Of a stretch of DNA of 64,000 nt, positions 13,156 through 26,440 are shown one piece after another (position 1 is the first letter of the stretch; each line of letters begins with the position of its first letter). Made by a program: the position numbers and the translations under genes. The stretch covers positions 3,695 to 67,694 of the forward strand of contig MHJJ01000014.1 of the NCBI GenBank assembly GCA_001817915.1, written 5' to 3'. The notes below the pieces were generated by a model. That model saw nothing but the letters and a program-made list of their open reading frames with translations. It made no database searches and was not told the origin of the DNA. This DNA comes from Candidatus Harrisonbacteria bacterium RIFCSPLOWO2_01_FULL_44_18. Its GTDB lineage: Bacteria; Patescibacteriota; Minisyncoccia; UBA6257; WO2-44-18.

Positions 13156-13182
13156 TCATAATTGGCTTTTTGAGAGGAGAAT

Positions 13183-13575: not shown

Positions 13576-13619
13576 GCGACGCGCTGCGCTTCATTAAAAG
13601 AGAATTAAAAGAAGCCAAG

Positions 13620-13646
13620 GGCCGATAAAAATCGGCCTTTTGTTTT
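13620..13646 (+). terminator. intrinsic terminator
   Basis: Stem ggccgat / atcggcc with an aaaa loop, then ttttgtttt. A second palindrome (tacctttcaataat/attattgaaaggta) follows. Confidence 0.7.
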
Positions 13647-13798
13647 ACCTTTCAATAATGTAAATTATTGAAAGGTAAAACATTTTTAAAAGATCGTTGA
13701 AAAAAAGCTTGAGATTAATTACTGCGCAACAAATAACACAACAAACAACATCCTTACAAACTTGAGAATGTAAGGATGTTGTGTGGTAAGTGCGGTAA

Positions 13799-13954
13799 GC
13801 TCTGAATTACGAAACTCAGTTTTCCGTCATTGCGAGGAGGCTTTGCGACGCGGCAATCATACGTTGCTATCTGTATAAATGAATAAATAATAAAGTAAGA
13901 TTGCTTCGCGAATCCTCGCAATGACGATAGTTTGATAGTTTCGTAATTCAGAGC
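13799..13954. repeat. compound nested palindrome N1
   Basis: Outer perfect 18-bp arms gctctgaattacgaaact / agtttcgtaattcagagc. Inner perfect 14-bp arms cgtcattgcgagga / tcctcgcaatgacg. Confidence 0.85.
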
Positions 13955-13982
13955 GGTAAGCGTGTTGTGCCAAAAAATTTGC

Positions 13983-14010
13983 TTGACAAATTTTATAGGT
14001 TTGCTATTAT
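13983..14010 (+). promoter_or_regulatory. sigma70-like promoter TTGACA-16-TATTAT
   Basis: cTTGACAaattttataggtttgcTATTAT shares the cTTGACAAATT...TGCTAT pattern with 2960 and 22190. Confidence 0.55.
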
Positions 14011-14061
14011 ATGGGAAGTTCGTTGATTGCTTTTCGAGGGCCATTTTCAGAAGGAGGAGCG

Positions 14062-14652
14062 ATGGAAGCGATGAGTAAGAACCATTGCTGTCTTTGTCAT
14101 AGTAATCCCGCCGAGGGTTTTTGCGTCTGTGATTGCAAGGAGCTGGCGAAGAACGCGCAGGCTGCGCCGGTTGCTTCGCCTGCGAATGCCGTTGCGGTTA
14201 TGCCCGATTTTCGGTTCAGCGTTCTTGAGCAAGCGCTTTTCCCGGTAATTGGTCTTTGGAATATTTTGGTGGGTTTAGTGAGAGGGATTTCCATAGCCTT
14301 GGGGTGTGCGGTAGTTTTGGGTTTGTGTACTTGGGTAATGCCAACTGCCGCGCGTAAGGGTTGTGTCGTTGACCACGCTAGTGCCAGCACGGACTGGAGT
14401 GCCATTTTTTTGGTTGGTTTATTGTTTTATCCGCTCTTTATTGTACTGGTTGTGTTCTTGGTTTTGTCTATTGGCGCGGCAATCGTGAGCGGTGATTGGG
14501 CTGGTTCAACGAAATGGGAGCAAAGCTACGACTATCTATTTAGCTACATTCAGCCCTTTTTAATTCCTCTTGCCGTTACCAACGCCTTGAGTCTCCTCTA
14601 CGAAATCGGCCGCACTAAGAGGAAGTTCGCTCAAGCGCCGATCAAGGTCTAA
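14062..14652 (+). CDS. hypothetical membrane protein with a Cys-rich N-terminus
   Basis: Start chosen at MEAMSKNH, behind AAGGAGGAG. Contains CCLCHSNPAEGFCVCDC followed by about 4 TM segments. Confidence 0.55.
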   Translation: MEAMSKNHCCLCHSNPAEGFCVCDCKELAKNAQAAPVASPANAVAVMPDFRFSVLEQALFPVIGLWNILVGLVRGISIALGCAVVLGLCTWVMPTAARKGCVVDHASASTDWSAIFLVGLLFYPLFIVLVVFLVLSIGAAIVSGDWAGSTKWEQSYDYLFSYIQPFLIPLAVTNALSLLYEIGRTKRKFAQAPIKV

Positions 14653-14670
14653 AGCGCCTAAAGCAAATAC

Positions 14671-14695
14671 ACCCCGATGAGATGTCGGGGTTTTT
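14671..14695 (+). terminator. intrinsic terminator
   Basis: Stem accccgat / gtcggggt followed by ttttt. Confidence 0.75.
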
Positions 14696-14703
14696 GATTT
14701 CTT

Positions 14704-14745
14704 GATTTCGGGAATCGATAGATACTTCTATCGATTCCCGAAATC
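14704..14745. repeat. palindrome of the gatttcgggaatc family
   Basis: Sequence gatttcgggaatcgatagatacttctatcgattcccgaaatc. More arms lie at 14773-14811 and 37541-37598. Confidence 0.85.
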
Positions 14746-14832
14746 GCCAAGTTAATTCAAATCCAAAAAGCCGATTCCCGAAATCACGCCGAACTATTGA
14801 TTTCGGGAATCATAAAAGCCTATAATTTCTAT

Positions 14833-17385
14833 ATGCTGAAGTATAATTTTCGTAAAATAGAAAAAAAGTGGCAAGCCGTCTGGAAGCGCAATAAGTATAA
14901 GGTCTGGCGCGCCGCGGATTTTTCTAAAAATCAAAACCCAAAAGCTAAAAGCTATGTATTGGATATGTTTCCCTATCCCTCCGGCGAAGGACTGCATGTC
15001 GGCCATGTTGAGGGTTATACCGCTTCGGATATCTACGCGCGTTTTTTAAGAATGAACGGCCGTAATGTTTTGCATCCGATGGGATGGGACGCCTTTGGTT
15101 TACCTGCGGAAAATTACGCGATTAAGACAAAAACTCATCCCAGCTTGGTGGTAAAAAAGAATGTAAGGCGATTTAAAGCCCAATTAGACAGCTTGGGATT
15201 CAGCTACGATTGGCAAAGAGAAATTAATACCACCGACCCCGGATATTATAAATGGACGCAGTGGATTTTTCTGCAGATGTTCAAAAACGGCCTTGCTTAT
15301 GAAGCAGAGATGCCGGTTAATTGGTGTCCCTCTTGTAAAACCGTATTAGCCAATGAAGAGGTGATTGACGGCCATTGCGAACGTTGTGACAGCCTCGCAG
15401 AAAGAAAAAGTTTGAAACAATGGATTTTAAAAATTACCGATTACGCCGAGCGTCTGCTGAAGGATCTAGACGGGTTGGATTGGCCGGAGCGAGTAAAAGA
15501 AATGCAAAGAAATTGGATTGGCCGGTCAGAGGGGGTGATCATTAAGTTTCAAGTTTCAAGTTTAAAGTTTCCAATCGAAGTTTTTACGACTCGGCCGGAT
15601 ACTTTGGCCGGCGCCACTTATCTGGTTTTAGCGCCGGAACATCCGCTTATCAAAGACTTACAGCGCAAAATTAGGAATCCTAACGAGGTGACGCGTTATG
15701 TTGAGCAGGCGAGCCATAAATCAGAGCGCGAGCGACTGGCGGAAGTAAAAGAGAAAACCGGAGTCGAGCTTAAGGGCATTAAAGCCGTTAATCCTTTGAC
15801 CAACGAACAAATTCCGATTTGGGTCGCTGATTATGTTTTGGTCCATTATGGCACGGGCGCGATTATGGCAGTGCCGGCCCATGATCAAAGAGACTTTGAA
15901 TTTGCTCAGAAATTTGAGTTGCCGATAAAGATTGTTATTTGCCCGAATTATCCGGAACCCGTTTGCCCGATTTTAGAAAAAGCTTATGAAGGCGATGGAT
16001 ATTTGGTTGGTTCGGGCGAATTTGACGGCCTGCCTAATAACGAAGCTAAAAAAACGATTCTTGAATCGTTGATAAAAAAAGACTTGGCGAAAAAGACTGT
16101 TAATTACAAATTGCGGGATTGGGTTTTTTCCCGTCAGCGTTATTGGGGCGAGCCGATACCTTTGGTTTTTTGTAAAAATTGTAAAAAACAAGTGGAGAAT
16201 TTTAAATCTCAAAACCAAAATTATTCTTTTGATAAATTTAGTTTGGGAGAATTGTTAAATCCCGGTTGGACGGTCATTCCTGATTCAGAATTACCGGTCA
16301 AGTTGCCCAATGTTAAAAATTATCAGCCAACCGGCAAGGCCGAGTCGCCTTTGGCTGGCATTGAAAAATGGACCAAGACGAGTTGTCCCAGATGCGGCGG
16401 GTTAGCTACGCGAGAAACTAATACTATGCCGCAATGGGCGGGGTCTAATTGGTATTATTTGCGATATTTAGATCCCAAGAATAAAGAAGAATTAGTTGAT
16501 CACGACAAAGAAAAATACTGGATGGGAGTGGACTTATACATCGGTGGCGTAGAGCACGCGGTGTTGCATTTGTTGTACGCCCGCTTTTGGCATAAGTTTT
16601 TGTATGATATCGGCATAGTTTCCACCAAAGAACCTTTTGGCAAATTAATTAATCAAGGTTTAATTTTGGGGCCGGATGGCCAGAAAATGTCAAAATCGCG
16701 CGGCAATGTGGCAAATCCCGACGAAATAGTTTCTAAATTTGGCGCGGATTCTTTGCGGCTTTATGAAATGTTTATGGGGCCGTTGGAGGAGGCAAAACCG
16801 TGGGATTCCCGCGGGATCGTGGGAATGCACCGTTTTTTACAAAGAACGTGGAAGTTATTCACGAAACCGGGAATTGAAAAAAATCCGCGTAAATCTGCTT
16901 CTACCGACGCAGAATCCGCGTCAATCCGCGTAGCGAAGCTGTTACACAAAACTATCAAGAAAGTTACCGAAGATGTCAAAAATTTCCGGTTTAATACCGC
17001 TATCAGCGCGCTGATGATTTTAGTTAACGAAATGGAAAAGAATCCTCAATTACTAATTACTAATTACCAATTACTAATAAAATTGTTGTTTCCTTTCGCG
17101 CCGCATTTAGCTCAAGAACTTTGGCAAAAACTAGGAAATAAGAGTTTATTGGATTACGAGCCTTGGCCGGTCTGGGATGAAAAATTAATCCAAGAAGAAG
17201 AGTTTGAGTTAATTATTCAAATCAACGGCAAAATGCGGGGTAAAATTATGACTCAAAAGGGAATTGTCGAAGAAGACGCGAAAAAACTTGCATTCAGCCA
17301 AAATGTTATTAAGAAATGGATCGGCGGCAAAAAAATCAAAAAAACTATTTTCGTGAAAGATAGGTTGATAAATTTTATTGTTTGA
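14833..17385 (+). CDS. leuS: leucine--tRNA ligase
   Basis: FPYPSGEGLHVGH and KMSKSRGN motifs plus a CP1 editing region. Start moved to MLKYNFRKIEKKW. Inserts at 16884-16933 and 17049-17076. Confidence 0.93.
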   Translation: MLKYNFRKIEKKWQAVWKRNKYKVWRAADFSKNQNPKAKSYVLDMFPYPSGEGLHVGHVEGYTASDIYARFLRMNGRNVLHPMGWDAFGLPAENYAIKTKTHPSLVVKKNVRRFKAQLDSLGFSYDWQREINTTDPGYYKWTQWIFLQMFKNGLAYEAEMPVNWCPSCKTVLANEEVIDGHCERCDSLAERKSLKQWILKITDYAERLLKDLDGLDWPERVKEMQRNWIGRSEGVIIKFQVSSLKFPIEVFTTRPDTLAGATYLVLAPEHPLIKDLQRKIRNPNEVTRYVEQASHKSERERLAEVKEKTGVELKGIKAVNPLTNEQIPIWVADYVLVHYGTGAIMAVPAHDQRDFEFAQKFELPIKIVICPNYPEPVCPILEKAYEGDGYLVGSGEFDGLPNNEAKKTILESLIKKDLAKKTVNYKLRDWVFSRQRYWGEPIPLVFCKNCKKQVENFKSQNQNYSFDKFSLGELLNPGWTVIPDSELPVKLPNVKNYQPTGKAESPLAGIEKWTKTSCPRCGGLATRETNTMPQWAGSNWYYLRYLDPKNKEELVDHDKEKYWMGVDLYIGGVEHAVLHLLYARFWHKFLYDIGIVSTKEPFGKLINQGLILGPDGQKMSKSRGNVANPDEIVSKFGADSLRLYEMFMGPLEEAKPWDSRGIVGMHRFLQRTWKLFTKPGIEKNPRKSASTDAESASIRVAKLLHKTIKKVTEDVKNFRFNTAISALMILVNEMEKNPQLLITNYQLLIKLLFPFAPHLAQELWQKLGNKSLLDYEPWPVWDEKLIQEEEFELIIQINGKMRGKIMTQKGIVEEDAKKLAFSQNVIKKWIGGKKIKKTIFVKDRLINFIV
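17049..17076. repeat. heptanucleotide tandem repeat AATTACY x4 inside leuS
   Basis: aattactaattactaattaccaattact encodes LLITNYQLLI. Confidence 0.85.
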
Positions 17386-17400
17386 AGATAAGATGAGAGC

Positions 17401-19206
17401 ATGTGCGGAATTGCCGGTTATATAGGCAAAAAAGAGGGGTTGCCGATTGTATTCGGGACTTTGCGGAAATTAGAGTACAGGGGCTACGACTCGGCAGGCG
17501 TAGCTTATTTTGTTAAAAGACGAAAGTCTGGGGTCAAGGGCGTGAAGGTTGTAAAGACTGTTGGGAAATTAGATAATTTAGAGCAAGCTATTTTTGATAA
17601 AAAGTCTTCATTGGCCGCGGCCGCTATCGGACATACGAGATGGGCTACCCATGGGCCTCCCAATGAAATTAACGCTCATCCCCACTGGGACTGCAAAAAA
17701 GAAATTTTTCTCGTTCATAACGGCATCATTGAAAATTATAAAGAATTAAAAGAAGAATTATTAAAAGCGGGGCATCATTTCCGTTCACAAACCGATACTG
17801 AAGTGGCAGTTCATTTGATTGAAGAATATGGTTTTGAGAAAGCTCTTAAGAAAATAGTTGGAGCTTATGCGTTTGCCATAATTTATAGAAAAGAACCAAA
17901 CAAGATTTATTTTGCTCGCCTGGGAAGTCCATTGGTAGTGGGAGTGGGACAGGAAGAGTATTATTTAGCTTCAGATCCAACGGCATTAGCTGGCTTAGTA
18001 AAGCGAGTTATCTATTTAAAGGATGGGCAAAGAGGGGTTTTGAGTCTCGGCGGATTTAAAATCGGTCCGACTAGACCAAAAGTCGAGCCGCTCGATATTG
18101 ATCCGGAACAGGCCAGAAAAGGCGACTTTCCGCATTTTATGCTCAAGGAAATTTTCGAGGGTCCGGAGGTGGTTAGATCGGCTTTGCGCGGCAGGCTTTT
18201 CCCCGAAAGGAATTTAGTGAAACTCGGCGGCCTAGAAAGCGCGGCGGATAAATTAAAAAAGATTAGACGGTTGGAAATTATTTCATGCGGCACCTCTTAT
18301 TATTCGGGCCTAGCCGGCGAACTGCTGTTTGAAGAGCTGTCTGAATTGCCGGCTGAAATACACCTTGCTTCCGAGTATCGATATCGGAAAGATCCAACCC
18401 AAAAGAGAGCCGCCTGTGTATTTATTTCGCAATCCGGCGAAACCGCCGACACTTTAGCGGCCCTAAAAAAAGCCGGCAGTCGCGGATATTTAACATTGGG
18501 GGTAGTAAATGCCGTCGGCTCAAGCATTGCTCGCGCTACCGAGGCCGGCGTGTACAATCATGCCGGACCGGAAATCGGGGTTGCTTCCACCAAAGCTTTT
18601 TTATCGCAACTCAGCGTTTTGGCGCTTATGTCTTTGTTTTTGTCAAAAAATAAGAAAAGCAAAACGGCTAAAGAAGTAATGAGAGAACTTTCCGCGATTC
18701 CCGGTAAAATTAAATTAATTTTGGCGCAAAGCGATAAAATAAAAGAGCTGGCTAAAAAATATTTAAAATATAAAAACTTTCTATACTTGGGAAGAGGATA
18801 TAATTACCCGACAGCGTTGGAAGGCGCGTTGAAAATAAAAGAAATCGCTTATGTTCATGCCGAAGGATACGCCGGCGGCGAAATGAAACACGGCCCCATC
18901 GCGCTGGTAGATAAAAATTTCCCAATCGTTGCCATCGTCACTCAAAATGGCGTTTATGAAAAAATGATTTCTAACCTGGAAGAAATCAAAGCTCGCGGCG
19001 GCCCCATTTTGGCGATCGCCACCGTCGGGGATAAAAACATCGGCAAGCTGGCTGACGATGTTTTTTATGTTCCAAAAACCGTTAGGCAACTTGAGCCGAT
19101 GTTGAATGTCGTGCCGCTGCAGCTTTTCGCTTATTACTTTGGCGCGCTGAAAGGTTATGATGTAGATAAGCCAAGAAATTTAGCAAAAAGTGTTACAGTA
19201 GAATAA
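17401..19206 (+). CDS. glmS: glutamine--fructose-6-phosphate aminotransferase
   Basis: 601 aa. Begins MCGIAGYIG (N-terminal Cys nucleophile), has two SIS domains, and ends KSVTVE. Confidence 0.93.
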   Translation: MCGIAGYIGKKEGLPIVFGTLRKLEYRGYDSAGVAYFVKRRKSGVKGVKVVKTVGKLDNLEQAIFDKKSSLAAAAIGHTRWATHGPPNEINAHPHWDCKKEIFLVHNGIIENYKELKEELLKAGHHFRSQTDTEVAVHLIEEYGFEKALKKIVGAYAFAIIYRKEPNKIYFARLGSPLVVGVGQEEYYLASDPTALAGLVKRVIYLKDGQRGVLSLGGFKIGPTRPKVEPLDIDPEQARKGDFPHFMLKEIFEGPEVVRSALRGRLFPERNLVKLGGLESAADKLKKIRRLEIISCGTSYYSGLAGELLFEELSELPAEIHLASEYRYRKDPTQKRAACVFISQSGETADTLAALKKAGSRGYLTLGVVNAVGSSIARATEAGVYNHAGPEIGVASTKAFLSQLSVLALMSLFLSKNKKSKTAKEVMRELSAIPGKIKLILAQSDKIKELAKKYLKYKNFLYLGRGYNYPTALEGALKIKEIAYVHAEGYAGGEMKHGPIALVDKNFPIVAIVTQNGVYEKMISNLEEIKARGGPILAIATVGDKNIGKLADDVFYVPKTVRQLEPMLNVVPLQLFAYYFGALKGYDVDKPRNLAKSVTVE

Positions 19207-19212
19207 AGGGCT

Positions 19213-19433
19213 TTGTCTGAAATTTCGAGCCGCAAGCGATGAAATTTCAGGAACAAAACCTTTACCCCCTCACTCATTCTAGTAAAGATATGGCAATAGC
19301 GCCCAATCAGAGACGTAAGTCGGCTTCGCCTCTACTGATTCTGAAATACCGCAATCGTTGCTGGAATGAGTGAGGGGGTGCTCGATTTTGTGGCTAAATT
19401 TTCATCGCCACAAACGGGCTCGAAAATTTAGAC
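19213..19433. repeat. compound nested palindrome N2
   Basis: Outer arms tgtctgaaatttcgagcc / ggctcgaaaatttagaca. Perfect 15-bp inner arms ccccctcactcattc / gaatgagtgaggggg. Confidence 0.85.
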
Positions 19434-19442
19434 AAAATCGGC

Positions 19443-20303
19443 ATGCATAAATTCATCGGTCTAATTTTATTAGTTGTCATAATTGGCTTTGTTTTTTTCG
19501 CGTACAATAAATTGCCGCAGTATTTTGGACGGGATTCTGATAAGAGCGATACGCAAAAGCCGCCGGCTTTTCAGTCAAAGATTAAGCCGGCGCCGGTAAT
19601 TGTCCGTCAGGAAAAAAGCGCCATCTCTGCCGTCGGAACCGTTGTTTCTAATTTAGAAAAAGTGAAAATTTCAGGAATCAGGCCGGCTAGCAGCGGGAGG
19701 AATTACAGCGAAATATCGCTTTCGGCTAATCTTCAAGAAGGAGAAAAAATTAATATTACCGGCTGGCAGATTAAAAGCAATAAAGCATATTTTTTTGTTC
19801 CCAGGGGAGCGGAAATTTATGAACCCGGCGGCTTGTCCGCCCCGAGTGATATTTATTTGCGCCGCGGCGATAAAGCGCGATTATATTCCAACACTAGCCG
19901 AGTGGGTCTCAATTTCAAGTTGAATAAGTGTATTGGTTATTTGGAAACCGCGGGATCGTTTACGCCGTCGCTTCCAAAAAATTGTCCGCGCGCCAATCGT
20001 TCAGAGATTGTCGGTTTTTCCGGCGCTTGCCAGGATTATAGTTTAAGTTTGCGGACTTGCGCGCCGGCTAACGATAATCCGCCGGTTCCTTATAACGATC
20101 AGCCGTGCAGAGATTTCTTAAAAACATTTACTTATCTGGGATGCTTTGAACGATATCAAGATGACGCGGATTTTCTTTCTCGGGAATGGTGGATTTGGCT
20201 GGGCGATTCTTTCGGCAATCAAGCGGATATTTTAGATCCTCGCCACGATCAAGTGCGGCTTTATGATGATAAAGGAAATTTGGTAGACGAGTATACTTAT
20301 TAA
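19443..20303 (+). CDS. hypothetical membrane-anchored protein (possible lamin-tail-like domain)
   Basis: 286 aa with an N-terminal TM segment. The segment EISLSANLQEGEKINITGWQIKS loosely resembles LTD domains; this domain call is weak. Confidence 0.55.
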   Translation: MHKFIGLILLVVIIGFVFFAYNKLPQYFGRDSDKSDTQKPPAFQSKIKPAPVIVRQEKSAISAVGTVVSNLEKVKISGIRPASSGRNYSEISLSANLQEGEKINITGWQIKSNKAYFFVPRGAEIYEPGGLSAPSDIYLRRGDKARLYSNTSRVGLNFKLNKCIGYLETAGSFTPSLPKNCPRANRSEIVGFSGACQDYSLSLRTCAPANDNPPVPYNDQPCRDFLKTFTYLGCFERYQDDADFLSREWWIWLGDSFGNQADILDPRHDQVRLYDDKGNLVDEYTY

Positions 20304-20339
20304 TTTAGTGACATGTTTCATGTGACATGTGCCAGGGTT

Positions 20340-21392
20340 CTATTTTCTCTCGCTTAATATCGCTTTCGCTTCGAATTCTTTGCCTTGTCTCAAGACTTTT
20401 AGTTTTAATACATCGCCGACTTCAAGATTTTCCAGGAAATCCTGAATCGTCTTTTGAGTAGAGATTTTTTCGCCGTTGCATTCCAGAACAATATCTTTTT
20501 CTTTTATGCCTGATTTATCCGCCGGACTATTGTGGATAATGGCGGATGAATGAGGGCCGTGGCTGATAACCAAAGCGCCATAGCCAACCGGCAGATTTAA
20601 TTTTTCCTTAAGATCTTCATCAATGGTAATATAGCGAAGACCAAGAAGCGGCCGGCGGATTCGCCCATGTTCCTTTAGGTCATGAAGGTCTCTTTTTACG
20701 GTATTGATCGGAATAGCAAAGCCGAGATTTTGAGCGCCGAAGACGATAGCCGCGTTGATGCCGATTGCTTCGCCGTCCAGATTAACTAACGGACCGCCGG
20801 AATTCCCCGGATTGATGGCCGCGTCGGTTTGGATCAAGCCGCGCAATTCCTGAAGCGGCTGTTTTGGGCCGATTGCCGCTTGGATTGATCGGGAGAGTCC
20901 GGAAATGATGCCGGCTGAAACTGTATTTTTAAAAAGACCAAGGGCGTTGCCGATAGCCAAAACGGTTTCGCCTAACTCCACCTTCGAAGAATCGCCTAAT
21001 TTAACTATTGGAAGTTTATTGGCCGGCGGATTGATTTTGATGATTGCTACGTCATCGATTGGGTCGCGCGCCAGAATTTGCGCCTTATATTTTTTGTCGT
21101 CATTGGTGATTACGGCATACTCCGCCTCGCCGTCCGAGATGACATGTTTGTTAGTAACAATAATTCCATTGGCATCAACAATAAATCCCGAGCCGCCGCC
21201 GATTTTGACCATCCCGCGCGCGTCAATCATTTCCTCGGGAATTTGAAGATGAGGATCGCCGGAAGGAAATAGCGGCAACAATTCCGGAGGTATTTCTTTT
21301 TCTATCGCCTCAAGACTTTTTGAAATTACAATCGAAACTACCGACGGCATCACTTTTTTAATTGTTTTAGTAAGAGGGGATTTTTCAGCCAT
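20340..21392 (-). CDS. htrA: HtrA/DegP-family serine protease with PDZ domain
   Basis: 350 aa. TNKHV (His), DDVAIIK (Asp) and GNSGGPLVN (Ser) form the catalytic triad. A C-terminal PDZ-like region is present. Confidence 0.88.
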   Translation of the reverse strand: MAEKSPLTKTIKKVMPSVVSIVISKSLEAIEKEIPPELLPLFPSGDPHLQIPEEMIDARGMVKIGGGSGFIVDANGIIVTNKHVISDGEAEYAVITNDDKKYKAQILARDPIDDVAIIKINPPANKLPIVKLGDSSKVELGETVLAIGNALGLFKNTVSAGIISGLSRSIQAAIGPKQPLQELRGLIQTDAAINPGNSGGPLVNLDGEAIGINAAIVFGAQNLGFAIPINTVKRDLHDLKEHGRIRRPLLGLRYITIDEDLKEKLNLPVGYGALVISHGPHSSAIIHNSPADKSGIKEKDIVLECNGEKISTQKTIQDFLENLEVGDVLKLKVLRQGKEFEAKAILSERK

Positions 21393-21424
21393 GTAATAAA
21401 TTATACCATTTCTATATAAAAATT

Positions 21425-21667
21425 TGGACCTAGCCAGAATCCCCTGCCTGCCGGCAGGCAGGGAACTGGCGTTTCCTCATTGTCCCGACAGCAAAGGTGG
21501 ACCCAAGGAGATTCGAACTCCTGACCTCCACATTGCAAATGTGGCGCTCTAGCCAACTGAGCTATGGGCCCACCTTTACTGTCGTGGATCCTCGACTTCA
21601 TTTTATTATATTTTTTAAAAAAGTGCGTCGGGACAAATGAGGTGTTCTGCCACTGAACTATAGGCCC
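21425..21667 (-). pseudogene. interrupted Ala-type tRNA gene (host of the nested tRNA-Ala; also has a T-loop palindrome)
   Basis: Minus strand reads GGGCCTA-TA-GTTC-AGTGGCA-GAAC-A-CCTCA-TTTG, then a 151-nt insert, then CAA-TGAGG-AAAC-GCCAG-TTC, then a 21-22-nt palindrome, then GATT-CTGGC-TAGGTCC-A. G3:U70 is present. Confidence 0.6.
21498..21571 (-). tRNA. tRNA-Ala(UGC)
   Basis: GGGCCCA-TA-GCTC-AGTTGGCTA-GAGC-G-CCACA-TTTGCAA-TGTGG-AGGTC-AGGAG-TTCGAAT-CTCCT-TGGGTCC-A, with G3:U70. Confidence 0.9.
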
Positions 21668-21735
21668 GCCCACTTGATTTATATTATTCGATTGTTTGGA
21701 TTTTCGCCAGACTTTGTTTGCCAATAAAATCTAAC

Positions 21736-21766
21736 GGTTCAACGCGTTGAACCATTAGAGTTTTTT
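21736..21766. terminator. palindromic hairpin ggttcaacgcgttgaacc with a T-run (possible bidirectional terminator)
   Basis: Perfect 18-bp palindrome, followed by tttttt on the plus strand. Confidence 0.4.
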
Positions 21767-21890
21767 GATTCCTCAACATAATATTTATATTTCTAAACTA
21801 GTTATGCGCGGCATAAAGGAACCGGCGTCAAATACTTCGGGCTTCGGCGAGGCGAAGCTTGCTTACGCTAAAGCTTTGACGAAGCGAATG

Positions 21891-21977
21891 CGGAGACGGG
21901 AGGATTCGAACCTCCGATGCCCTTTCGGGCATACCGCATTTCGAGTGCGGCCCATTCAACCACTCTGGCACGTCTCC
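21891..21977 (-). tRNA. tRNA-Ser(CGA)
   Basis: GGAGACG...CCGCA-CTCGAAA-TGCGG, long variable arm TATGCCCGAAAGGGCATC, GGAGG-TTCGAAT-CCTCC-CGTCTCC-G. Confidence 0.9.
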
Positions 21978-21979
21978 AA

Positions 21980-22159
21980 TGCCCTCGGGAAGAATCGAAC
22001 CTCCATCCGCGCGTTAGGAGTGCGCTGTTCCCCGCCTGCCATCGCTTGTGCCCCCAGAAAGAATCGAACTCTCATCTTTCCCTTAGGACGGGATTGCTCG
22101 GTCCATTGAGCTATGGGGGCTCAGGCCATGGCGGGCAGTATCCATTGAACTACGAGGGC
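21980..22159 (-). pseudogene. interrupted tRNA-Arg(CCU)-like gene (host of the nested tRNA-Arg)
   Basis: GCCCTCG-TA-GTTC-AATGGATA, then a 108-nt insert (22031-22138), then GAAC-A-GCGCA-CTCCTAA-CGCGC-GGAT-GGAGG-TTCGATT-CTTCC-CGAGGGC-A. Confidence 0.6.
22049..22120 (-). tRNA. tRNA-Arg(CCU)
   Basis: GCCCCCA-TA-GCTC-AATGGACC-GAGC-A-ATCCC-GTCCTAA-GGGAA-AGAT-GAGAG-TTCGATT-CTTTC-TGGGGGC-A. Confidence 0.85.
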
Positions 22160-22167
22160 ACGCAATT

Positions 22168-22196
22168 ATTATATTCGATCTTCGGCAACTTGACAA
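22168..22196 (-). promoter_or_regulatory. sigma70-like promoter TTGTCA-17-TATAAT driving the minus-strand tRNA cluster
   Basis: Minus strand reads TTGTCAagttgccgaagatcgaaTATAAT and ends 8 nt before the first tRNA nucleotide (22159). Its -35 overlaps the plus-strand -35. Confidence 0.6.
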
Positions 22197-22217
22197 ATTA
22201 TGTAGACCTGCTATAAT
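22190..22217 (+). promoter_or_regulatory. sigma70-like promoter TTGACA-16-TATAAT for the 3D-domain gene
   Basis: cTTGACAaattatgtagacctgcTATAAT. Confidence 0.65.
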
Positions 22218-22258
22218 TTGGTTAAAGTGCGATAGTTCCCCGAAGGGGGATTTTTTTT

Positions 22259-22720
22259 ATGAATAAGAACATAGGCATCATATTCATTTTCGCCTTGACT
22301 CTGCCGACAACTTTCGCGGGGCAGCTTTATATTGTCGCCCCAGTCTTTGGTGAAGAAACTAACATTTTGGACATTCTTAGCAATCAAATAGCCGTTAGTT
22401 CTCTTTCGGGCGACATGCCGTTTTTTAATAATTCGGCGAGGATGAACGTTGTTGTCACCGGTTATTCTTCCACTCATGATCAAACAGACAGCACCCCGTT
22501 TATTACTGCTTCAGGGAAGCGGGTGCGGGACGGAATTATCGCCGCTAATTTTTTGAAGTTTGGCGCTCGGATTCAGATTCCGGAAATCTTCGGCGACAAG
22601 ATTTTTGTTGTTGAAGATCGGATGGCTCGCCGGTTTTCTGATCGGGTTGATATTTGGTTTCCGGACAGGGCGACGGCTTTAAAATTCGGGAAAAAAGAAG
22701 TGGAGATTGTTATACTCTAA
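22259..22720 (+). CDS. 3D domain-containing protein (RlpA/MltA-like DPBB fold), secreted
   Basis: 153 aa with a signal-like N-terminus. VVVTGYSSTHDQTDSTPFITASGKRVRDGIIAAN and VEDRMARRFSDRVDIWF are typical of 3D domains. Confidence 0.75.
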   Translation: MNKNIGIIFIFALTLPTTFAGQLYIVAPVFGEETNILDILSNQIAVSSLSGDMPFFNNSARMNVVVTGYSSTHDQTDSTPFITASGKRVRDGIIAANFLKFGARIQIPEIFGDKIFVVEDRMARRFSDRVDIWFPDRATALKFGKKEVEIVIL

Positions 22721-22735
22721 ATCAGAACCCATTAA

Positions 22736-22759
22736 AAATTCCTCCTAGGGGAGGAATTT
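22736..22759. terminator. bidirectional hairpin between convergent genes
   Basis: aaattcctcc tagg ggaggaattt. Confidence 0.6.
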
Positions 22760-22772
22760 AGAAATGGAGGAA

Positions 22773-23402
22773 TTAGAAATGGAAGGCGGCACCGGTTAAC
22801 AAGAAGAATAAGCCATTTATGGCAAAAGAAATAATCGGACTTAAAAACGGCAAAAGGATTATGACAATCAGCAGGCCGAACATGCCAAGACGGTCAAAGT
22901 TTTGTTGCTGGTGAGGCGAAAGGTTTAAAATTGTCCCCAATAGCTTGGATCCGTCCAAAGGGGGAATGGGTATCAAATTAAACAGGCCGAGGATTAAATT
23001 AATAAAGACCATTAAAGCTAGCAGGGATGTTGCAAGTTCGCCGACGGAAAATAAGAGTAAAAGTCGTAAAATCAATCCGAAGACAATTGCCAAAAGGAAA
23101 TTAGTAGCCACTCCGGCAAATGATACCCAGAACATTCCTTTGCGATAACTGAAAAATCTGCTCGGGTCTATTGGCACCGGTTTTGCTCCGCCGAGAATAA
23201 AAGGCGAGCCCATCAGTATTAGCGCGGCAGGAAGCAAAAGCGACATTAAAGGGTCAATGTGAGGAATCGGATTAAGCGTAAGCCGCCCGGCCAACTTTGC
23301 GGTAGGATCGCCAAATTTCAGCGCCATCCAGCCGTGAGCTATTTCATGTAGAATTGCCGAAAATATGAGGATTGCCAAGACCGTAATCCACCAGACCAGC
23401 AT
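22773..23402 (-). CDS. site-2 protease family (M50) membrane metalloprotease
   Basis: HEIAHGWMA (HExxH) sits in the first TM region; the protein is polytopic. Start moved to MLVWWITV behind AGGAGG; the longer ORF runs into palindrome N3. Confidence 0.8.
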   Translation of the reverse strand: MLVWWITVLAILIFSAILHEIAHGWMALKFGDPTAKLAGRLTLNPIPHIDPLMSLLLPAALILMGSPFILGGAKPVPIDPSRFFSYRKGMFWVSFAGVATNFLLAIVFGLILRLLLLFSVGELATSLLALMVFINLILGLFNLIPIPPLDGSKLLGTILNLSPHQQQNFDRLGMFGLLIVIILLPFLSPIISFAINGLFFLLTGAAFHF

Positions 23403-23404
23403 GA

Positions 23405-23631
23405 GCCACCTCCTTTCATATAAATCTCTGTCTGACTTCCGATGTCCCCAATATTGATAATTTTCCGAAGGGCAATCGGCTGGAAGCCGATCGGACATCG
23501 GAAGTCTCAATATTAGGACATCCGATATCCGTCCCGATGTTCATCGGGATCGCCTGCGGCGAGAATATAATATTTGGGATATCGGATGTCTGCCAGCAGC
23601 GCGACCGAGAGCTTATATGAAAGGAGGTGGC
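23405..23631. repeat. compound nested palindrome N3
   Basis: Perfect 18-bp outer arms gccacctcctttcatata / tatatgaaaggaggtggc. Inner pairs are gacttccgatgtcc/ggacatcggaagtc, catccgatatcc/ggatatcggatg and cccgatg/catcggg. Confidence 0.9.
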
Positions 23632-23761
23632 CGCGCCTCCTCAATTTTCAATGAACCGCAATGTAAGTTAAATTATTGTATAGAATGGTTTCGATGTCAA
23701 AATCAGATAGGTTGTCGCGATTATTGCATATCAGACTTGGATTTATTAAATTATATATTAC

Positions 23762-23835
23762 GGGCCTATAGTGAAGCGGTATCACGGATCCATGGCATGG
23801 ATCAAGTCGGGGTTCGACTCCCCGTAGGTCCACCA
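23762..23835 (+). tRNA. tRNA-Ala(GGC), CCA encoded
   Basis: GGGCCTA-TA-GTGA-AGCGGTA-TCAC-G-GATCC-ATGGCAT-GGATC-AAGT-CGGGG-TTCGACT-CCCCG-TAGGTCC-ACCA, with G3:U70. Confidence 0.9.
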
Positions 23836-23981
23836 GACAGGAAATTGCAAGCGAGGCGACTGCCCCTGTTTTAGGCAGGCACATTTGGCGGGTTTTTATA
23901 TACTAGAGAAACGGGCGCGTTGACTACGCGTCACGGCTTCATATATTATATTTCTGTACGTTGAAAGGGGGTAAGCCGGCT

Positions 23982-24464
23982 ATGATCAAAGTCGCGCTTT
24001 TTAATGAAATTTCCCATGAATTAGGCAATACTCTTCTTGTGGATGTCACAAGCAGGATCGTTGAAAGGATTAATAATCTTTTGAGGCAGTTGTCAGTCAA
24101 CGCTCCATATTGGACTATCGGATGTTTCGCGGAGTTTTTGCGGCAGTCCAATAATCATTTAGTTGTTGCTATTGATGGCAAAATTATTGCTGGTATGGGA
24201 ACGGTTATTTTGAGCTATTCTTTAATGGGCCGTCACGCGAGGATCGAGGATGTGATTGTAGATAAACCATATCTCGGTAAGGGTTTGGGTCGAAAAATTG
24301 TCGAGGAATTAATCAGAATCGCCAACAAGGAAGGAGCAAGATGGATTGATTTAACCAGCAATTCTTCGCGAGTCGGGGCACTGAAGCTTTATAGAAGCTT
24401 GGGATTTAAGGATGTGGCGACAAATTGTTTGCGGCTGGCTTTGGGAGAGCAGGATTCGAGCTAG
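23982..24464 (+). CDS. GNAT family N-acetyltransferase
   Basis: The segment IEDVIVDKPYLGKGLGRKIVEELI is the acetyl-CoA binding motif (Q/RxxGxG/A). Start chosen at MIKVALF. The last codons lie in an arm of N4. Confidence 0.8.
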   Translation: MIKVALFNEISHELGNTLLVDVTSRIVERINNLLRQLSVNAPYWTIGCFAEFLRQSNNHLVVAIDGKIIAGMGTVILSYSLMGRHARIEDVIVDKPYLGKGLGRKIVEELIRIANKEGARWIDLTSNSSRVGALKLYRSLGFKDVATNCLRLALGEQDSS

Positions 24465-24713
24465 CATCAATTTAGTGAGCCAATTCCCGCCCATCTTCTT
24501 TGTTACTCGTCGCTTATGTGCCTATTGGCACACTACGCTCCTCGCGCCTTGAATCTGGACAGGAATTGGCTCACCCGAAGGGAAGAGAGAATTTGAGCCA
24601 AGTTCGAGGAACGACGAGGAGGTTGTGCTGGTAAGCACATCGACGAGGAGTGACAAAGAAATTGGCTCAAATTCTCTCTTCTAAATTTGACGCCAGTTCG
24701 AATCCTGCTCTCC
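24444..24713. repeat. compound nested palindrome N4
   Basis: Outer arms ggagagcaggattcgagctagcatcaatttag / ctaaatttgacgccagttcgaatcctgctctcc. Inner arms tgagccaattcc/ggaattggctca and aagagagaatttgagccaa/ttggctcaaattctctctt. Shares about 60 nt with 48682-48751. Confidence 0.9.
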
Positions 24714-24737
24714 TAGAGAAATAACCGCGGTTTCAAA

Positions 24738-24761
24738 AAATTCCCTCGAATGAGGGAATTT
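24738..24761. terminator. hairpin aaattccctc gaat gagggaattt
   Basis: Lies just 3' of the minus-strand ORF 24760-25464, overlapping its stop codon. Its sequence is similar to the hairpin at 22736. Confidence 0.5.
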
Positions 24762-25464
24762 AAATTGGATTTTGAATAATGTCGGGGATCATTGATGGAA
24801 CCAGTCCCAAGCGGTTACGCGCGGAACGGGGATCGCAAAACATGATCATAATCTTGTTTGTTCTGAAATGAACGTATGCTTGATATTGAGATAGATCGCC
24901 GTCGCCATTATCGGCGCACCAAATCGCCTGTTCATTAAAAATAAGTTTTTTTCTAAGCAAGCGGCGGATCAGCCAAGTGTAGACGTAGACTACGGCCCTT
25001 TCCCGAATTTGCGTTTCTCCAGTGAAGCGTTCTTCTTGATCGAAAAAACTTTTCCGCAAACTGCCGCTTAGAATCGCCTTTCTTAGCAAATACCACTTGA
25101 GTTCGCAGGTCTCGCGCTTCACGAAATCCATTTTTGTAATATCTGCCGCCTCTTCGCTTAAAATCGAGTTTTTCGCCTGGACAAATTTTACCCCCGGAAT
25201 TTTACCGCATAGAAATATAATCCTATTTATTGTGAGCGGGCGATTGGCGCCGTCTTGAGTTAGGCCCGGGAAGAGCACATAGTCGTCTTTACATTCTATG
25301 AGTTTAGCCGGAGAAAAGGGGATGACATCCAGACGCGTTTTTTCTGGAATAGATAATTTTGTTTTCCAAATCTCGCAGACTTCCATATAATCCATAAAAT
25401 TGTTTCCCATTATTTTTCGAGCGCCCCAGCGGGAGGTTCCATCATCTGTCATTTCGCGCCTCAT
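24760..25464 (-). CDS. hypothetical protein, no recognisable family
   Basis: 234-aa ORF. The start may instead be the second ATG (25452), which sits behind GAGG. No motif recognised. Confidence 0.5.
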   Translation of the reverse strand: MRREMTDDGTSRWGARKIMGNNFMDYMEVCEIWKTKLSIPEKTRLDVIPFSPAKLIECKDDYVLFPGLTQDGANRPLTINRIIFLCGKIPGVKFVQAKNSILSEEAADITKMDFVKRETCELKWYLLRKAILSGSLRKSFFDQEERFTGETQIRERAVVYVYTWLIRRLLRKKLIFNEQAIWCADNGDGDLSQYQAYVHFRTNKIMIMFCDPRSARNRLGLVPSMIPDIIQNPI

Positions 25465-25559
25465 TGAATTTTTTGATGAACTGCTTAAACTATAAAGATT
25501 AGTGAAAAATTAGTCAATTAGGGGTAAAATATTTTTAAATTGCCCTAAGAAATAAATTT

Positions 25560-25595
25560 GGAAGCGTTGCAGAGTGGACGAATGCACCATTTGGC
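25560..25595 (+). pseudogene. orphan 5' half of a Ser-type tRNA
   Basis: GGAAGCG-TT-GCAGAGTGGACGAATGC-A-CCATT... has the acceptor 5' strand and a D-arm very like that of the neighbouring tRNA-Ser. I found no matching 3' half. Confidence 0.5.
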
Positions 25596-25607
25596 TCTAT
25601 TCAAAGC

Positions 25608-26400: not shown

Positions 26401-26440
26401 CGTCTCCCCTCGGAATTTTTCTATCAAGCAGCTGATGTCC

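Follow-up and report, generated by a model that had tools for sequence, protein, structure and literature searches.

The 64-kb window analysed here, that is, the whole stretch under study of DNA from the tiny groundwater bacterium Candidatus Harrisonbacteria, carries long intergenic palindromes that are real, non-random and lineage-specific. With a probability of roughly 0.6, we read them as several unrelated families of non-coding, selfish insertions of the MITE or foldback type, which would have colonised the Harrisonbacteria lineage after its split from the nearest sampled relatives. A preliminary description of this DNA had left their function open between terminators, recombination or replication signals, mobile DNA and RNA genes. 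Mobile DNA is now favoured by the direct repeat and the homologues of the element at 13800-13953, by empty sites, by nested copies and by a short mobile family, whereas the evidence speaks against terminators and RNA genes.

Large palindromes and their presence in independent assemblies

An inverted-repeat scan, already suggested in the preliminary description and run here across the whole window as a self-reverse-complement BLAST, counted palindromes of at least 120 nt. It yielded six in the 64-kb window, compared with none in each of 20 dinucleotide shuffles; applied to 1.35 Mb of control loci taken from 80 genomes, mostly CPR, the same scan found 11 large palindromes, and most of these loci had none. 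The scan missed the weaker palindrome at 44264-44433 and added 23405-23631 and 24444-24713 to the five gaps that had been listed before. Seven large palindromes are hence present in all, the five listed gaps together with 23405-23631 and 24439-24718 (Table 1). Each forms a single long imperfect hairpin, with z of about -6 to -10, and the common architecture noted in the preliminary description was found throughout. The focal stretch between glmS and an LTD-domain gene folded with -98.7 kcal/mol (19207-19442; z -8.4, and z -9.5 on the minus strand). For the other listed gaps, z was -10.1 (13790-13965), -8.7 (26435-26720), -10.8 (30165-30335) and -6.4 (44255-44440), and in all five cases 0 of 200 dinucleotide shuffles folded as well. 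The five listed gaps are real palindromes, present as described and each folding as one long stem-loop. Their perfect arms were also recovered, with 17 and 14 nt in 13799-13954, 16 nt in the focal element and 21 nt in 26441-26715.

Perfect termini measured 17 nt at 13799, 19 nt at 23405 (GCCACCTCCTTTCATATAA, outer arms), 16 nt at 24444, 21 nt at 26441 (AGAACCCATCTCAATAATAAT) and 11 nt at 30169, and the termini at 44264 comprised 12 nt with one mismatch. The outer arms have perfect ends of 17-21 nt, yet their overall identity is only 61-76% over all aligned columns with gaps counted; the termini are the best conserved part of the large palindromes. The elements are 154-280 nt long. Their reading frames, all six considered, are either broken or spurious ORFs without homologues, in agreement with the lack of coding potential stated earlier. 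Spurious ORFs had likewise been pointed out correctly, with tdk as an example: the ORF of 297 aa is falsely lengthened by 94 codons, as its TK domain starts from residue 102 and independent calls give 203 aa. Large palindromes account for 1.5 kb and all palindromic elements together for ~2.7 kb of a total of ~8.5 kb of intergenic DNA, which bears out the large non-coding investment that had been proposed.

Table 1. Palindromic features of the window, with positions counted from its first letter
Feature	Position	Strand	Context
GIY-type short palindrome	12221-12287 (core 12225-12283)	+	in frame in TatD, +21 aa
Second GIY-type short palindrome	12830-12902 (core 12834-12898)	+	in frame in TatD, +23 aa; TTTA/TTTA flanks
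MITE of the 'TGAATTACGAAA' family	13793-13960 including repeats; element 13800-13953 (154 nt)	.	
Focal outer palindrome, left arm	19209-19260	.	from arm alignment and fold
Focal inner palindrome	19261-19382	.	core 19265-19378 (114 nt)
Focal outer palindrome, right arm	19383-19439	.	ends 3 nt before ATG of 286-aa LTD-domain gene
227-nt palindrome	23405-23631	.	divergent gap, M50 peptidase gene (minus) / tRNA-Ala
280-nt compound palindrome	24439-24718	.	convergent gap; two copies of 74-nt element (48680-48753)
275-nt palindrome	26441-26715	.	divergent gap, tdk (minus) / P-type ATPase gene
162-nt palindrome	30169-30330	.	directly after comF start codon, divergent comF/pilM gap
142-nt palindromic element, copy 1	31471-31612	.	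fills pilM TAA to next ATG exactly
106-nt hairpin	32719-32824	.	fills gap between pilO and next gene
86-nt hairpin	33135-33220	.	gap before pilB
142-nt element, copy 2	34967-35108	.	pilB/pilT gap; 98% identical to copy 1
142-nt element, one and a half further copies	36183-36331	.	pilT/pilC gap
170-nt palindrome	44264-44433	.	upstream of ligA; weakest of the set (z -6.4)
Third GIY-type short palindrome	47386-47447 (core 47390-47443)	.	intergenic; TAAA/TAAA flanks
74-nt palindromic element	48680-48753	.	simple form of the unit in 24439-24718

Within the window, no sequence relation was found among the large elements. The preliminary description of mostly unrelated sequences therefore stands for the window itself but not for 13799, whose family recurs in other CPR genomes. 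For the remaining six (focal element, 23405, 24439, 26441, 44264 and 30169), we found no second copy in 78 kb of the source genome (the window plus 14 kb of extra flanks, less than 10% of the genome). In ~2.2 Mb of other genomes, mostly CPR, BLAST and a mismatch-tolerant pattern search returned no copy either. A six-frame chimera of six elements gave no match in a 5.8-billion-protein database at E up to 0.1, and an IMG/VR search with two patterns, the 26441 terminus and the arm of a short family, revealed no second copy of 26441. In other sampled genomes, mostly CPR, large palindromes usually belong to multicopy families, with three copies in genome L062 and two each in L022 and L023; singletons occurred in L045, L067 and L075. 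The three closest relatives (L011-L013; glmS 75-77% identical) contained no large palindromes in ~51 kb, and the protein database held no glmS entry at an identity between 77% and 100%.

In other assemblies, several contigs terminate within a palindrome, at 19217, 19282, 23515, 23545 and 44342; contigs of three assemblies do so within 23405-23631, and two JGI contigs start at or inside 44264-44433. Such breaks are what would be expected if read mis-joins had produced the palindromes as assembly artefacts or chimeras. However, every listed element is spanned base-identically by contigs from different samples and assemblers (ENA ANAN16 scaffolds, JGI, MEGAHIT k141), and we give an artefact practically no credence. 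An independent ENA assembly matches the window from 7401 to 29206 with 100% identity, eight contigs from different samples and assemblers contain the focal gap, and 30169 and 44264 occur in further JGI/ENA contigs. Absence from independent assemblies or long reads had been named beforehand as the observation that would speak against the elements; in eight or more independent assemblies, they are present and identical. The population is almost clonal, with assemblies at least 99.9% identical. The only variants among them were length changes in a heptamer array and a 19-nt deletion at 24521-24539 (L221 assembly), which is an instability of 24439-24718 within the population. Given this near-clonality, we saw no large palindrome that was present in some assemblies and absent as a whole from others.

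Insertions between and within genes

The comF-pilMNO-pilB-pilT-pilC cluster allowed a direct comparison of orthologous gaps. In L217/L218 these measure 25, 11, 1, -1, 12 and 40 nt, and in the window 223, 142, 115, 100, 151 and 149 nt, where all six are filled with hairpins. The comF/pilM gap of 25 nt lacks the palindrome 30169-30330, which in the window is flanked by ATA/ATA, a possible 3-bp duplication; the stretch ATATT.TG.TATACT, conserved in this comparison, lies immediately to its right. The 142-nt element is represented by 3.5 copies in the window. At its three sites the gaps of L217 are 11 nt (31471-31612), 12 nt (34967-35108) and 40 nt (36183-36331), and related sequences exist in L103, L120 and L130. 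At the site of the 106-nt hairpin, 1 nt separates the genes in both L217 and L219, and at that of the 86-nt hairpin the genes abut or overlap in both. L219 carries different, unrelated palindromes in three of the pilus-cluster gaps. The comparison of syntenic gaps, a check put forward in the preliminary description, hence found the pilus-cluster palindromes absent from L217/L218, where gaps range from -1 to 40 nt, and 30169-30330 as well as the pilus-operon hairpins are insertions. For the tdk/ATPase gap and the gap upstream of ligA, no syntenic partners were present among ~200 loci.

The element at 13800-13953 is an insertion as well. It has perfect arms of 17 nt (GCTCTGAATTACGAAAC) and 14 nt (CGTCATTGCGAGGA), lies between two perfect 7-bp copies of CGGTAAG in direct orientation (13793-13799 and 13954-13960), and sits between terminators (13617-13682) and a promoter-like site (13983-14010). 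Two homologues were found in L023, one at ~914-1053 with the 7-bp flanks TTAATAA/TTAATAA and one at ~3781-3928 with the 6-bp flanks AAAGTT/AAAGTT. The termini of a palindrome at L067:17871-18032 are also related to those of 13800-13953.

A repeated 74-nt unit, represented in the window by three copies or part-copies, supplies the building blocks of the palindrome 24439-24718. Positions 3-35 and 35-60 of this unit are found in forward orientation at 24444-24475 and 24582-24607, with a 100-nt hairpin between them, and positions 1-59 in reverse orientation at 24658-24716 (96.6%). At 48680-48753 the simple unit is followed by a separate hairpin resembling an intrinsic terminator. A tRNA origin of the unit, considered for its GGATTCGAAC-like motif, was rejected: by eye its arms misfit the T-arm/acceptor layout, and ARAGORN called no tRNA.

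Furthermore, the two short palindromes in TatD are insertions, of 63 and 69 nt including their flanks, and both are missing from the three orthologues in L011-L013. The short 'CCCCCACACC' family had 113 distinct metagenomic matches, and 45 of 81 short copies showed identical 4-nt flanks (8.9 expected). Just inside the conserved arms, three pairs are palindromic with a sequence that differs between copies. In other genomes, the same inverted termini enclose, in ~303-nt versions, a GIY-YIG ORF (Pfam PF01541, E 1.9e-16). This ~303-bp unit consists of an 85-aa GIY-YIG nuclease gene only, with 19-bp inverted termini (ACCCCCACACCATAACGAG / CTCGTTTGGTGTGGGGGT), and represents a candidate autonomous partner for the short family, present in other genomes; the window itself contains no GIY-YIG gene.

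The focal element begins 2 nt past the glmS stop codon. Its outer layer has ~80% arm identity, and the left arm contains a 10-bp sub-hairpin of its own (CTGAAATTTC..GAAATTTCAG). The inner core, with 16-nt perfect arms (ACCCCCTCACTCATTC), is located at the apex of the outer hairpin. The inner termini, tttaCCCCC-N-CAC...GTG-N-GGGGG, are similar to the ends of the short palindromes associated with GIY-YIG; the pattern CCCCC-N-CAC has only four matches in 64 kb, namely the focal inner layer and the three GIY-type elements. The 4-nt flanks of the inner palindrome are not duplicated (TTTA/TGCT). In the relatives, glmS is followed by 10-26 nt and then by a different gene, which encodes a small TM protein. 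Since BLASTP showed no similarity between this gene and the LTD-domain gene, there is no strict empty site for the focal gap. Target-site duplications are absent at the focal element, 23405, 24439, 26441 and 44264. By analogy with the insertions described above, we infer a mobile-DNA origin for the focal element, 26441, 44264 and 23405; the focal element, 26441 and 44264 are placed by analogy only, being single-copy and without duplication.

We may speculate that CPR harbour a so far undescribed class of minimal mobile element, a possibility that we put forward tentatively and with more doubt than belief. It would comprise the ~303-bp GIY-YIG unit, 4-bp duplications and abundant ORF-less hairpin derivatives of 60-145 nt in spacers and in frame in housekeeping genes. 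Its nuclease would recognise the extruded hairpin or cruciform more than the sequence, so that any long palindrome might be a substrate; GIY-YIG enzymes such as Slx1 are structure-specific, and covariation is seen in the stem next to the termini. Recognition of structure would account for many palindromes of one architecture and unrelated sequences, including the focal element with its CCCCC-N-CAC inner termini.

Relation to known repeat elements

We compared the palindromes with prokaryotic MITEs using features listed in a review (PMC10969869). Correia/NEMIS elements of Neisseria, ERIC of enterobacteria and QMITEs of Coxiella are, like the elements described here, intergenic, non-coding, 70-280 nt long and bounded by inverted termini. 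They share predicted long, stable stem-loop transcripts and, at 'young' copies, direct repeats like those around 13800-13953; these repeats fade in older copies (PMC10969869). Like the elements in the window, they may be present or absent between related genomes and can provide, or take the place of, promoters or ribosome-binding sites of the genes next to them. In contrast, MITE families are known by tens to hundreds of copies, and most large elements here are single-copy in the available sequence. Moreover, the window points to many unrelated families in one very small genome, with several elements nested and with pairing over nearly the whole element instead of the termini only.

Rickettsia palindromic elements (RPEs) also occur as several families together in a host-dependent bacterium with a small, reduced genome, and insert between genes as well as in frame in housekeeping genes, as seen here for TatD. 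This is a likeness in behaviour, with no sequence relation expected; RPEs are ~100-150 nt long, compared with 59-65 nt for the in-frame elements of the window. Unlike RPEs, the latter feature 4-bp flanking duplications and a candidate autonomous GIY-YIG form. RPEs are not known to have an autonomous partner. RPEs enter genes, whereas the large palindromes were not seen inside genes. Foldback (FB-type) elements likewise consist almost entirely of two long, internally complex inverted arms, and their families differ in sequence. They are, however, eukaryotic, much larger, and have arms of tandem subrepeats, so the resemblance is one of form only. Finally, REP/BIME sequences and Rho-independent terminators are also intergenic hairpins at gene ends, but the large palindromes are 5-10 times longer, have neither a T-run nor a shared consensus, and occur in divergent gaps too.

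CPR/Patescibacteria are generally described as having highly streamlined genomes with little mobile DNA. In the window, about a third of the intergenic DNA would consist of palindromic insertions of several families, and the genes of a syntenic relative abut at the same junctions. In annotation, palindromes give rise to spurious ORFs and wrongly extended N-termini, as the 94 codons of tdk illustrate, and they break short-read contigs. For comparative genomics of CPR, this means that gap length and operon structure change fast. Expression may be affected as well: among pilus and housekeeping genes, hairpins now stand between a stop codon and the next start codon, and comF and the M50 peptidase gene have their ribosome-binding sites within palindromes. 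If confirmed, a ~300-bp GIY-YIG-only unit with target duplications and MITE-like derivatives would add an enzyme class to prokaryotic transposable elements.

Mobile insertion, local formation or RNA function

Inverted termini bound each element, and most of its length can self-pair. If the palindromes are mobile insertions, short gene spacers, terminator-to-promoter space and the apical loops of existing palindromes would serve as landing sites, these being among the few positions open to insertion in a streamlined genome. Insertion into an existing palindrome would then give rise to the multi-layer compound architecture, presumably by nesting. In the transcript, the palindrome would fold back and keep the upstream stop and the downstream start adjacent at the stem base. 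Such adjacency, which presupposes RNA folding, would explain why the elements are tolerated inside operons. Enzymes that mobilise the large elements are a presumed step of this scheme: for none of the large palindromes was an autonomous partner found, and no insertion sequence with a DDE transposase and matching termini was seen.

Alternatively, template switching or hairpin-primed repair could have copied gap DNA in inverted form, once or more, leaving non-mobile, single-copy palindromes that decay. Five of the seven large palindromes without target duplication and six without a second copy in the sequence searched are in agreement with this, as are the adjacent, oppositely oriented copies of the 74-nt unit in 24439-24718. 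The M50 gene has its Shine-Dalgarno sequence in the left arm of 23405-23631, and comF its AAGAGG Shine-Dalgarno sequence in that of 30169-30330. This overlap of left arms with ribosome-binding sites of the neighbours would be just as compatible with the copying of an arm from local sequence, and the sequence-varying palindromic pairs inside the GIY-type arms are what de novo fold-back synthesis would give. The 7-bp direct repeat of 13800-13953 and its homologues in other genomes, on the other hand, do not fit local formation, and perfect termini with diverged interiors are not expected of an evenly decaying duplication. Dispersed multicopy families account for the large palindromes in all other sampled genomes with more than one of them (L062, L022, L023). 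Local formation would also leave unexplained why there are many palindromes in one lineage and none in close relatives, unless a repair defect is assumed in addition. We therefore regard it as unlikely.

Hairpins selected for an RNA function, as mRNA stabilisers, RNase III sites, attenuators, unusual terminators or small-RNA genes, appear more improbable still. Their very stable folds would suit such roles, and in co-directional gaps (glmS/LTD, pilM/pilN, pilB/pilT, pilT/pilC) many of them span the distance from stop to start codon nearly exactly, which implies that they are transcribed if the flanking genes are co-transcribed. Secondary roles of the mRNA-hairpin kind are established for the intergenic repeats REP and ERIC (PMC10969869). 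However, the palindromes are missing in the closest relatives and in the syntenic operon with abutting genes, and they are present in divergent gaps and in terminator-to-promoter space that looks untranscribed. Folding energies and G-U counts on both strands showed no consistent bias toward the sense strand, and for several elements of co-directional gaps the antisense strand gave the slightly better fold. At gathering score, Rfam 15 detected only nine tRNAs in the whole window. For the focal region at E up to 1, it gave one chance-level match, to a Plasmodium RNA (E 0.81; 17 bits compared with a gathering score of 70). A role as Rho-independent terminators was rejected, as no T-run or U-tract follows any large palindrome and three of the seven lie in divergent gaps. 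A terminator/promoter consensus scan of 13000-31000 made no terminator call at any large palindrome end and called true terminators nearby. TIGR-Tas arrays were discarded too, as each palindrome is a hairpin on its own, dispersed rather than arranged in tandem. Ordinary hairpins also occur in the window, at 13617-13640, 13641-13682 and 48757-48775, together with 27-nt palindromes at 7396, 11344, 14697 and 14792.

Palindromes across the window

The window is gene-dense CPR DNA with a G+C content of 36-51% (about 44% overall), and Rifle aquifer metagenome assemblies contain the same DNA. The PilM encoded here is identical to an NCBI protein assigned to Candidatus Harrisonbacteria bacterium RIFCSPHIGHO2_01_FULL. 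In the gap behind glmS, 19209-19439 forms one long imperfect hairpin of -98.7 kcal/mol (mean of 200 dinucleotide shuffles -58.4, z -8.4), and its minus strand folds as well as the plus strand (z -9.5). Within it, 19209-19260 pairs with 19383-19439 as an outer palindrome with arms about 80% identical. An inner palindrome of 114 nt (19265-19378), which has 16-nt perfect arms, starts with tttaCCCCCTCAC and ends with GTGAGGGGG, sits at the apex of the outer hairpin.

Four other stretches listed in the preliminary description fold like the focal element (see table), and the perfect arms quoted there were found in the sequence. Its statement that 26441-26715 falsely lengthens the tdk reading frame by 94 codons also holds: the ORF has 297 aa, its TK domain begins at residue 102, and gene calls made independently put the protein at 203 aa. 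Alignment of the window against its own reverse complement returned six palindromes of at least 120 nt. The same scan found none in 20 dinucleotide shuffles of the window and 11 in 80 glmS loci of other genomes (1.35 Mb, mostly CPR), most of these loci having none. When every gap was folded, many shorter gaps also proved to be single hairpins. Of roughly 8.5 kb of intergenic DNA, large palindromes account for 1.5 kb and the full set of palindromic elements for about 2.7 kb. The abundance of palindromes observed earlier is right and statistically solid.

Palindromic elements and repeats (window positions unless a locus is named)
Feature	Position	Fold z	Remark
Focal gap	glmS stop codon 19206 to ATG 19443 of 286-aa gene		weak lamin-tail-domain (LTD) match in 286-aa gene
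Large palindrome	13799-13954	-10.1	reverse-complement scan
Large palindrome (focal)	19212-19436		reverse-complement scan
Large palindrome	23405-23631		reverse-complement scan; divergent gap
Large palindrome	24444-24713		reverse-complement scan; start 24439, convergent gap
Large palindrome	26441-26715	-8.7	reverse-complement scan; divergent gap
Large palindrome	30169-30330	-10.8	reverse-complement scan; divergent gap
Large palindrome	44264-44433	-6.4	weaker, under the scan cut-off
Gap hairpins	31471-31612, 34967-35108, 36183-36331		fold of gaps
Gap hairpins	32719-32824, 33135-33220		fold of gaps
Gap hairpins	47383-47499, 48680-48753, 55990-56076		fold of gaps
Gap hairpins	5841-5967, 14654-14789		fold of gaps
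GIY-type copies	12221-12287, 12830-12902		in frame in TatD; flanks included
GIY-type copy	47386-47447 (core 47390-47443)		intergenic; flanks included
GIY-type family, other loci	L118:5142-5444		minus; also L119, L154, L189, L094 and about 100 more loci, L091-L208
26-nt repeat	7038-7063, 55745-55770		prolyl-tRNA synthetase-like gene, pheS
27-nt palindrome	7396-7422, 11344-11370, 14697-14723, 14792-14818		gene ends/junctions
Promoter-like motif	2958-2994, 13981-14017, 22188-22224
AACAACT array	29337-29471		convergent ATPase/comF gap
Other heptamer repeats	50177-50221, 56545-56589, 55061-55091, 46277-46307		inside gatA, pheT, pheS, ligA

Absence from independent assemblies, which the preliminary description had named as the observation that would count against the elements, was not what we found. 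An ENA scaffold matches 7401-29206 at 100% identity, the focal gap is spanned by eight contigs from different samples and assemblers, and the palindromes at 30169 and 44264 are spanned by further contigs; that the elements are an artefact is extremely improbable. Short-read contigs (Logan, MEGAHIT, JGI) stop inside palindromes at 19217, 19282, 23515, 23545 and 44342, and we suspect that inverted or repeated sequence breaks them there. Assemblies of the same population are nearly clonal, and only two differences touch elements, namely a 19-nt deletion and the length of the AACAACT array. The deleted segment (CCTATTGGCACACTACGCT, 24521-24539) is missing from one scaffold (L221) within 24439-24718; the scaffold also differs by an SNP at 24484, and both point to an unstable or unconstrained interior of this palindrome. 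The AACAACT array is shorter by 14 nt in L225 and longer by about 58 nt in L221, and L223 has hardly any of it; either the repeat truly varies in length or the assemblies have collapsed it. One assembly (L209:13869-13967) has a 99-nt insertion beside a tRNA gene, about 2.6 kb upstream of window position 1 and beyond a glycosyltransferase gene, that three others (L210, L211 and L212) lack. Here, the 5' part of the tRNA is repeated, broken by a 34-nt hairpin-rich insert, with a 14-nt duplication GAGCTAATCGCGCA at the end.

Terminators and RNA structures

Across the whole window, the Rfam gathering score was reached by nine tRNAs only, and a permissive search of the focal region gave a single chance-level match. 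A terminator scan and T-run check found none at any large palindrome, with ordinary terminators called a few dozen bases off (13617-13640, 13641-13682, 14671-14691); the palindrome 13799-13954 has two terminators on one side and an 11-of-12 promoter match on the other. A tie to gene ends, for which the preliminary description had proposed comparing gap orientations, did not emerge: three large palindromes lie in divergent, one in convergent and three in co-directional gaps. Folding energies and G-U counts of both strands gave no sense-strand preference, and for several elements in co-directional gaps the antisense strand folds slightly better. These analyses speak against known RNAs, terminators, gene-end elements and sense-strand RNA structures. 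From the earlier list of functions, mobile DNA is supported, and terminators and RNA genes are disfavoured for want of T-runs, Rfam matches and strand bias.

Distinct from the large palindromes, a 27-nt palindrome (ATCTATTGnTTyCGGGAAnCAATAGAT) with four copies is a short REP-like or terminator-like repeat. A conserved, extended promoter-like motif ACTTGACAAATTnTnT..TGCTATAAT has three copies; two of them agree with 11-12 of the 12 sigma-70 consensus positions and carry a TG extension. The segment 3044-3553, adjoining tRNA-Leu, is among the window's most stable folds, at -93 kcal/mol for each 200 nt. It has no Rfam match at E up to 1 and overlaps a minus-strand ORF of 169 aa for which the contig annotation lists no Pfam match; an RNA gene that escaped detection is conceivable, and so is plain G+C-rich coding DNA.

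GIY-type short palindromes

TatD (12130-13155) contains three in-frame insertions that the orthologues of the nearest relatives (L011-L013) do not have. The short palindrome CCCCCACACCAAACGAG...CTCGTTATGGTGYGGGGG accounts for two of these insertions (21 and 23 aa), and its third copy in the window lies between genes. A metagenome scan with the right arm as query pattern returned at least 118 loci, spread over many metagenomes from groundwater and sediment. The 113 distinct matches listed comprise 81 short palindromes of about 68-74 nt or about 120-147 nt, 20 longer ones (303 nt in most cases) and 12 that lack a left arm within 450 nt. Identical 4-nt flanks (TTGA, TTTA, TAAA, TTCA, TGAA, TCAA) border 45 of the 81 short copies listed, against 8.9 expected with shuffled partners and a maximum of 20 in 2000 shuffles; the family CCCCCACACCAAACGAG..CTCGTTATGGTGTGGGGG is widespread, has 4-bp flanking duplications and is related to the large palindromes but, unlike most of them, demonstrably mobile. 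In an alignment of 50 short copies, the three base pairs just inside the conserved arms underwent double changes that kept pairing (in 25, 5 and 22 sequences), right-arm conservation being uninformative there as the search pattern fixes that arm.

The 303-nt forms hold a single 85-aa ORF between the same inverted termini, with a Pfam GIY-YIG catalytic domain (E 1.9e-16). This unit and the short copies together have the appearance of a minimal autonomous element and its MITE-like derivatives; the literature searched held no description of it, which is not proof of novelty. The window contains no GIY-YIG gene. Tentatively, a minimal GIY-YIG-encoding unit, possibly structure-specific, may stand behind the palindromes.

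The motif CCCC-N(1-2)-CAC ... GTG-N(1-2)-GGGG has only four matches in 64 kb, the three GIY-type copies and the focal inner palindrome. Because 2.26 Mb of other loci hold no second CCCCCTCAC copy and the 4-nt flanks are not duplicated, the focal inner palindrome may at best be a divergent relative of this family. By analogy and this terminal-motif link, we assign the focal element, as a putative member, to the MITE/foldback kind. The third TatD insertion (12397-12445, 16 aa) contains a 26-nt repeat, GCGGACTGGACGCAGACTTGCGCAGA, that also lies inside two other genes and may be another small element entering coding DNA.

Insertion, layering and rival origins

A direct sign of transposition is a perfect direct repeat, CGGTAAG, at both ends of 13800-13953. 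Its homologues in a distant Parcubacteria genome (L023, glmS 60% identical) share common termini, (C)TnTGAATTACGAAAC, and similar interiors, and are flanked by TTAATAA/TTAATAA and AAAGTT/AAAGTT, respectively; a palindrome in L067 has related termini and a different interior. A 142-nt element is present in 3.5 copies in the window, and groundwater contigs from Hainich contain related sequences. Most large palindromes pair perfectly over their outer 11-21 nt, while whole arms are only 61-76% identical (all aligned columns including gaps). Perfect termini with diverged arms are what enzyme-recognised termini would be expected to leave, unlike an evenly decaying duplication. In other sampled genomes with more than one large palindrome, these belong to multicopy families whose members are 81-89% identical (L062 with three copies, L022 and L023 with two each); L045, L067 and L075 have one each.

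The layers may arise when a palindromic element lands in another's loop or when copies end up head to head. In 24439-24718, the pieces 24444-24475 and 24582-24607 are forward copies of two parts of the 74-nt element 48680-48753 (its positions 3-35 and 35-60), separated at the element's loop by a 100-nt hairpin, and 24658-24716 is the same element reversed (96.6% identity). Such layering is shown for this palindrome only, and we infer it for the others.

The protein database contains no glmS between 77% and 100% identical to that of the window, so no near sister of the lineage has been sampled. The three nearest relatives (L011-L013, glmS 75-77%) keep the order TatD-x-leuS-glmS-htrA with zero large palindromes, and the gene after glmS starts 10-26 nt on. 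It encodes a 45-50-aa membrane protein without detectable similarity to the 286-aa protein; as the downstream gene differs, the short gap is supportive of insertion but not a strict empty site.

The comparison of syntenic gaps proposed in the preliminary description is more telling in the type IV pilus cluster. L217 and L218 (PilM 65% identical) have the gene order of the window, comF(-), pilM, pilN, pilO, orf, pilB, pilT, pilC, and their gaps are short: 25 nt against 223 nt in the window for comF/pilM, 11 against 142 for pilM/pilN, 1 against 115 for pilO/orf, -1 against 100 for orf/pilB, 12 against 151 for pilB/pilT and 40 against 149 for pilT/pilC. All six expanded gaps contain a hairpin. 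The comF/pilM spacer of L217, ATATTTGTTATACTAG.., is recognisable in the window as ATATTCTGGTATACTAAAG.. directly right of a 162-nt palindrome, which places the insertion of this palindrome immediately behind the comF start codon; ATA lies on either side. In a third genome, L219, three of these junctions contain palindromes unrelated in sequence to those of the window, and a unit of about 56 nt (CTTCTTTGACGCGTCAAAGAA..TTCTTTGACGTGTCAAAGAAG) occupies two adjacent gaps in opposite orientations (9885-9945, 11139-11196), which shows that the same junctions were colonised independently. Because the gaps are short in L217/L218 and hold unrelated palindromes in L219, they are permissive landing sites filled independently by different lineages, not conserved structures.

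We consider that mobile elements of several families, palindromic and non-autonomous, entered this lineage (probability about 0.6). What limits confidence is that target duplications are lacking at five of the seven large palindromes and that six have no second copy in the less than 10% of the source genome, the other genomes' loci and the protein database searched. Local fold-back duplication without mobility would fit such single-copy elements, and also arms that coincide with ribosome-binding sites; it appears unlikely, however, as it fits neither 13800-13953 nor the perfect termini nor the multicopy families of other genomes. Still less probable are hairpins selected as RNA, given no conservation, no T-runs and no strand bias, although a secondary use of inserted hairpins is possible. 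The elements are best classed with the MITE/foldback kind, here in a CPR genome.

Mobile palindromes would survive where insertion is harmless, and one at a stop-start junction could fold out of the way in the mRNA. The glmS/LTD, pilM/pilN, pilB/pilT and pilT/pilC hairpins start 0-2 nt past the stop codon and finish 0-3 nt before the ATG, so both codons are still juxtaposed at the stem base, an effect through which the insertions may be tolerated. Two minus-strand genes now draw their Shine-Dalgarno sequence from the element next to them (an M50 peptidase gene with GGAGGTG, comF with AAGAGG).

Repeats also occur within genes. Heptamer runs (AAATCCA, CAAACTA, AGCGACA) lie inside four genes and stay in frame because three units make 21 nt, and gyrB (60320-63553, 1077 aa) contains an intein (Pfam Intein_splicing match, precomputed annotation).
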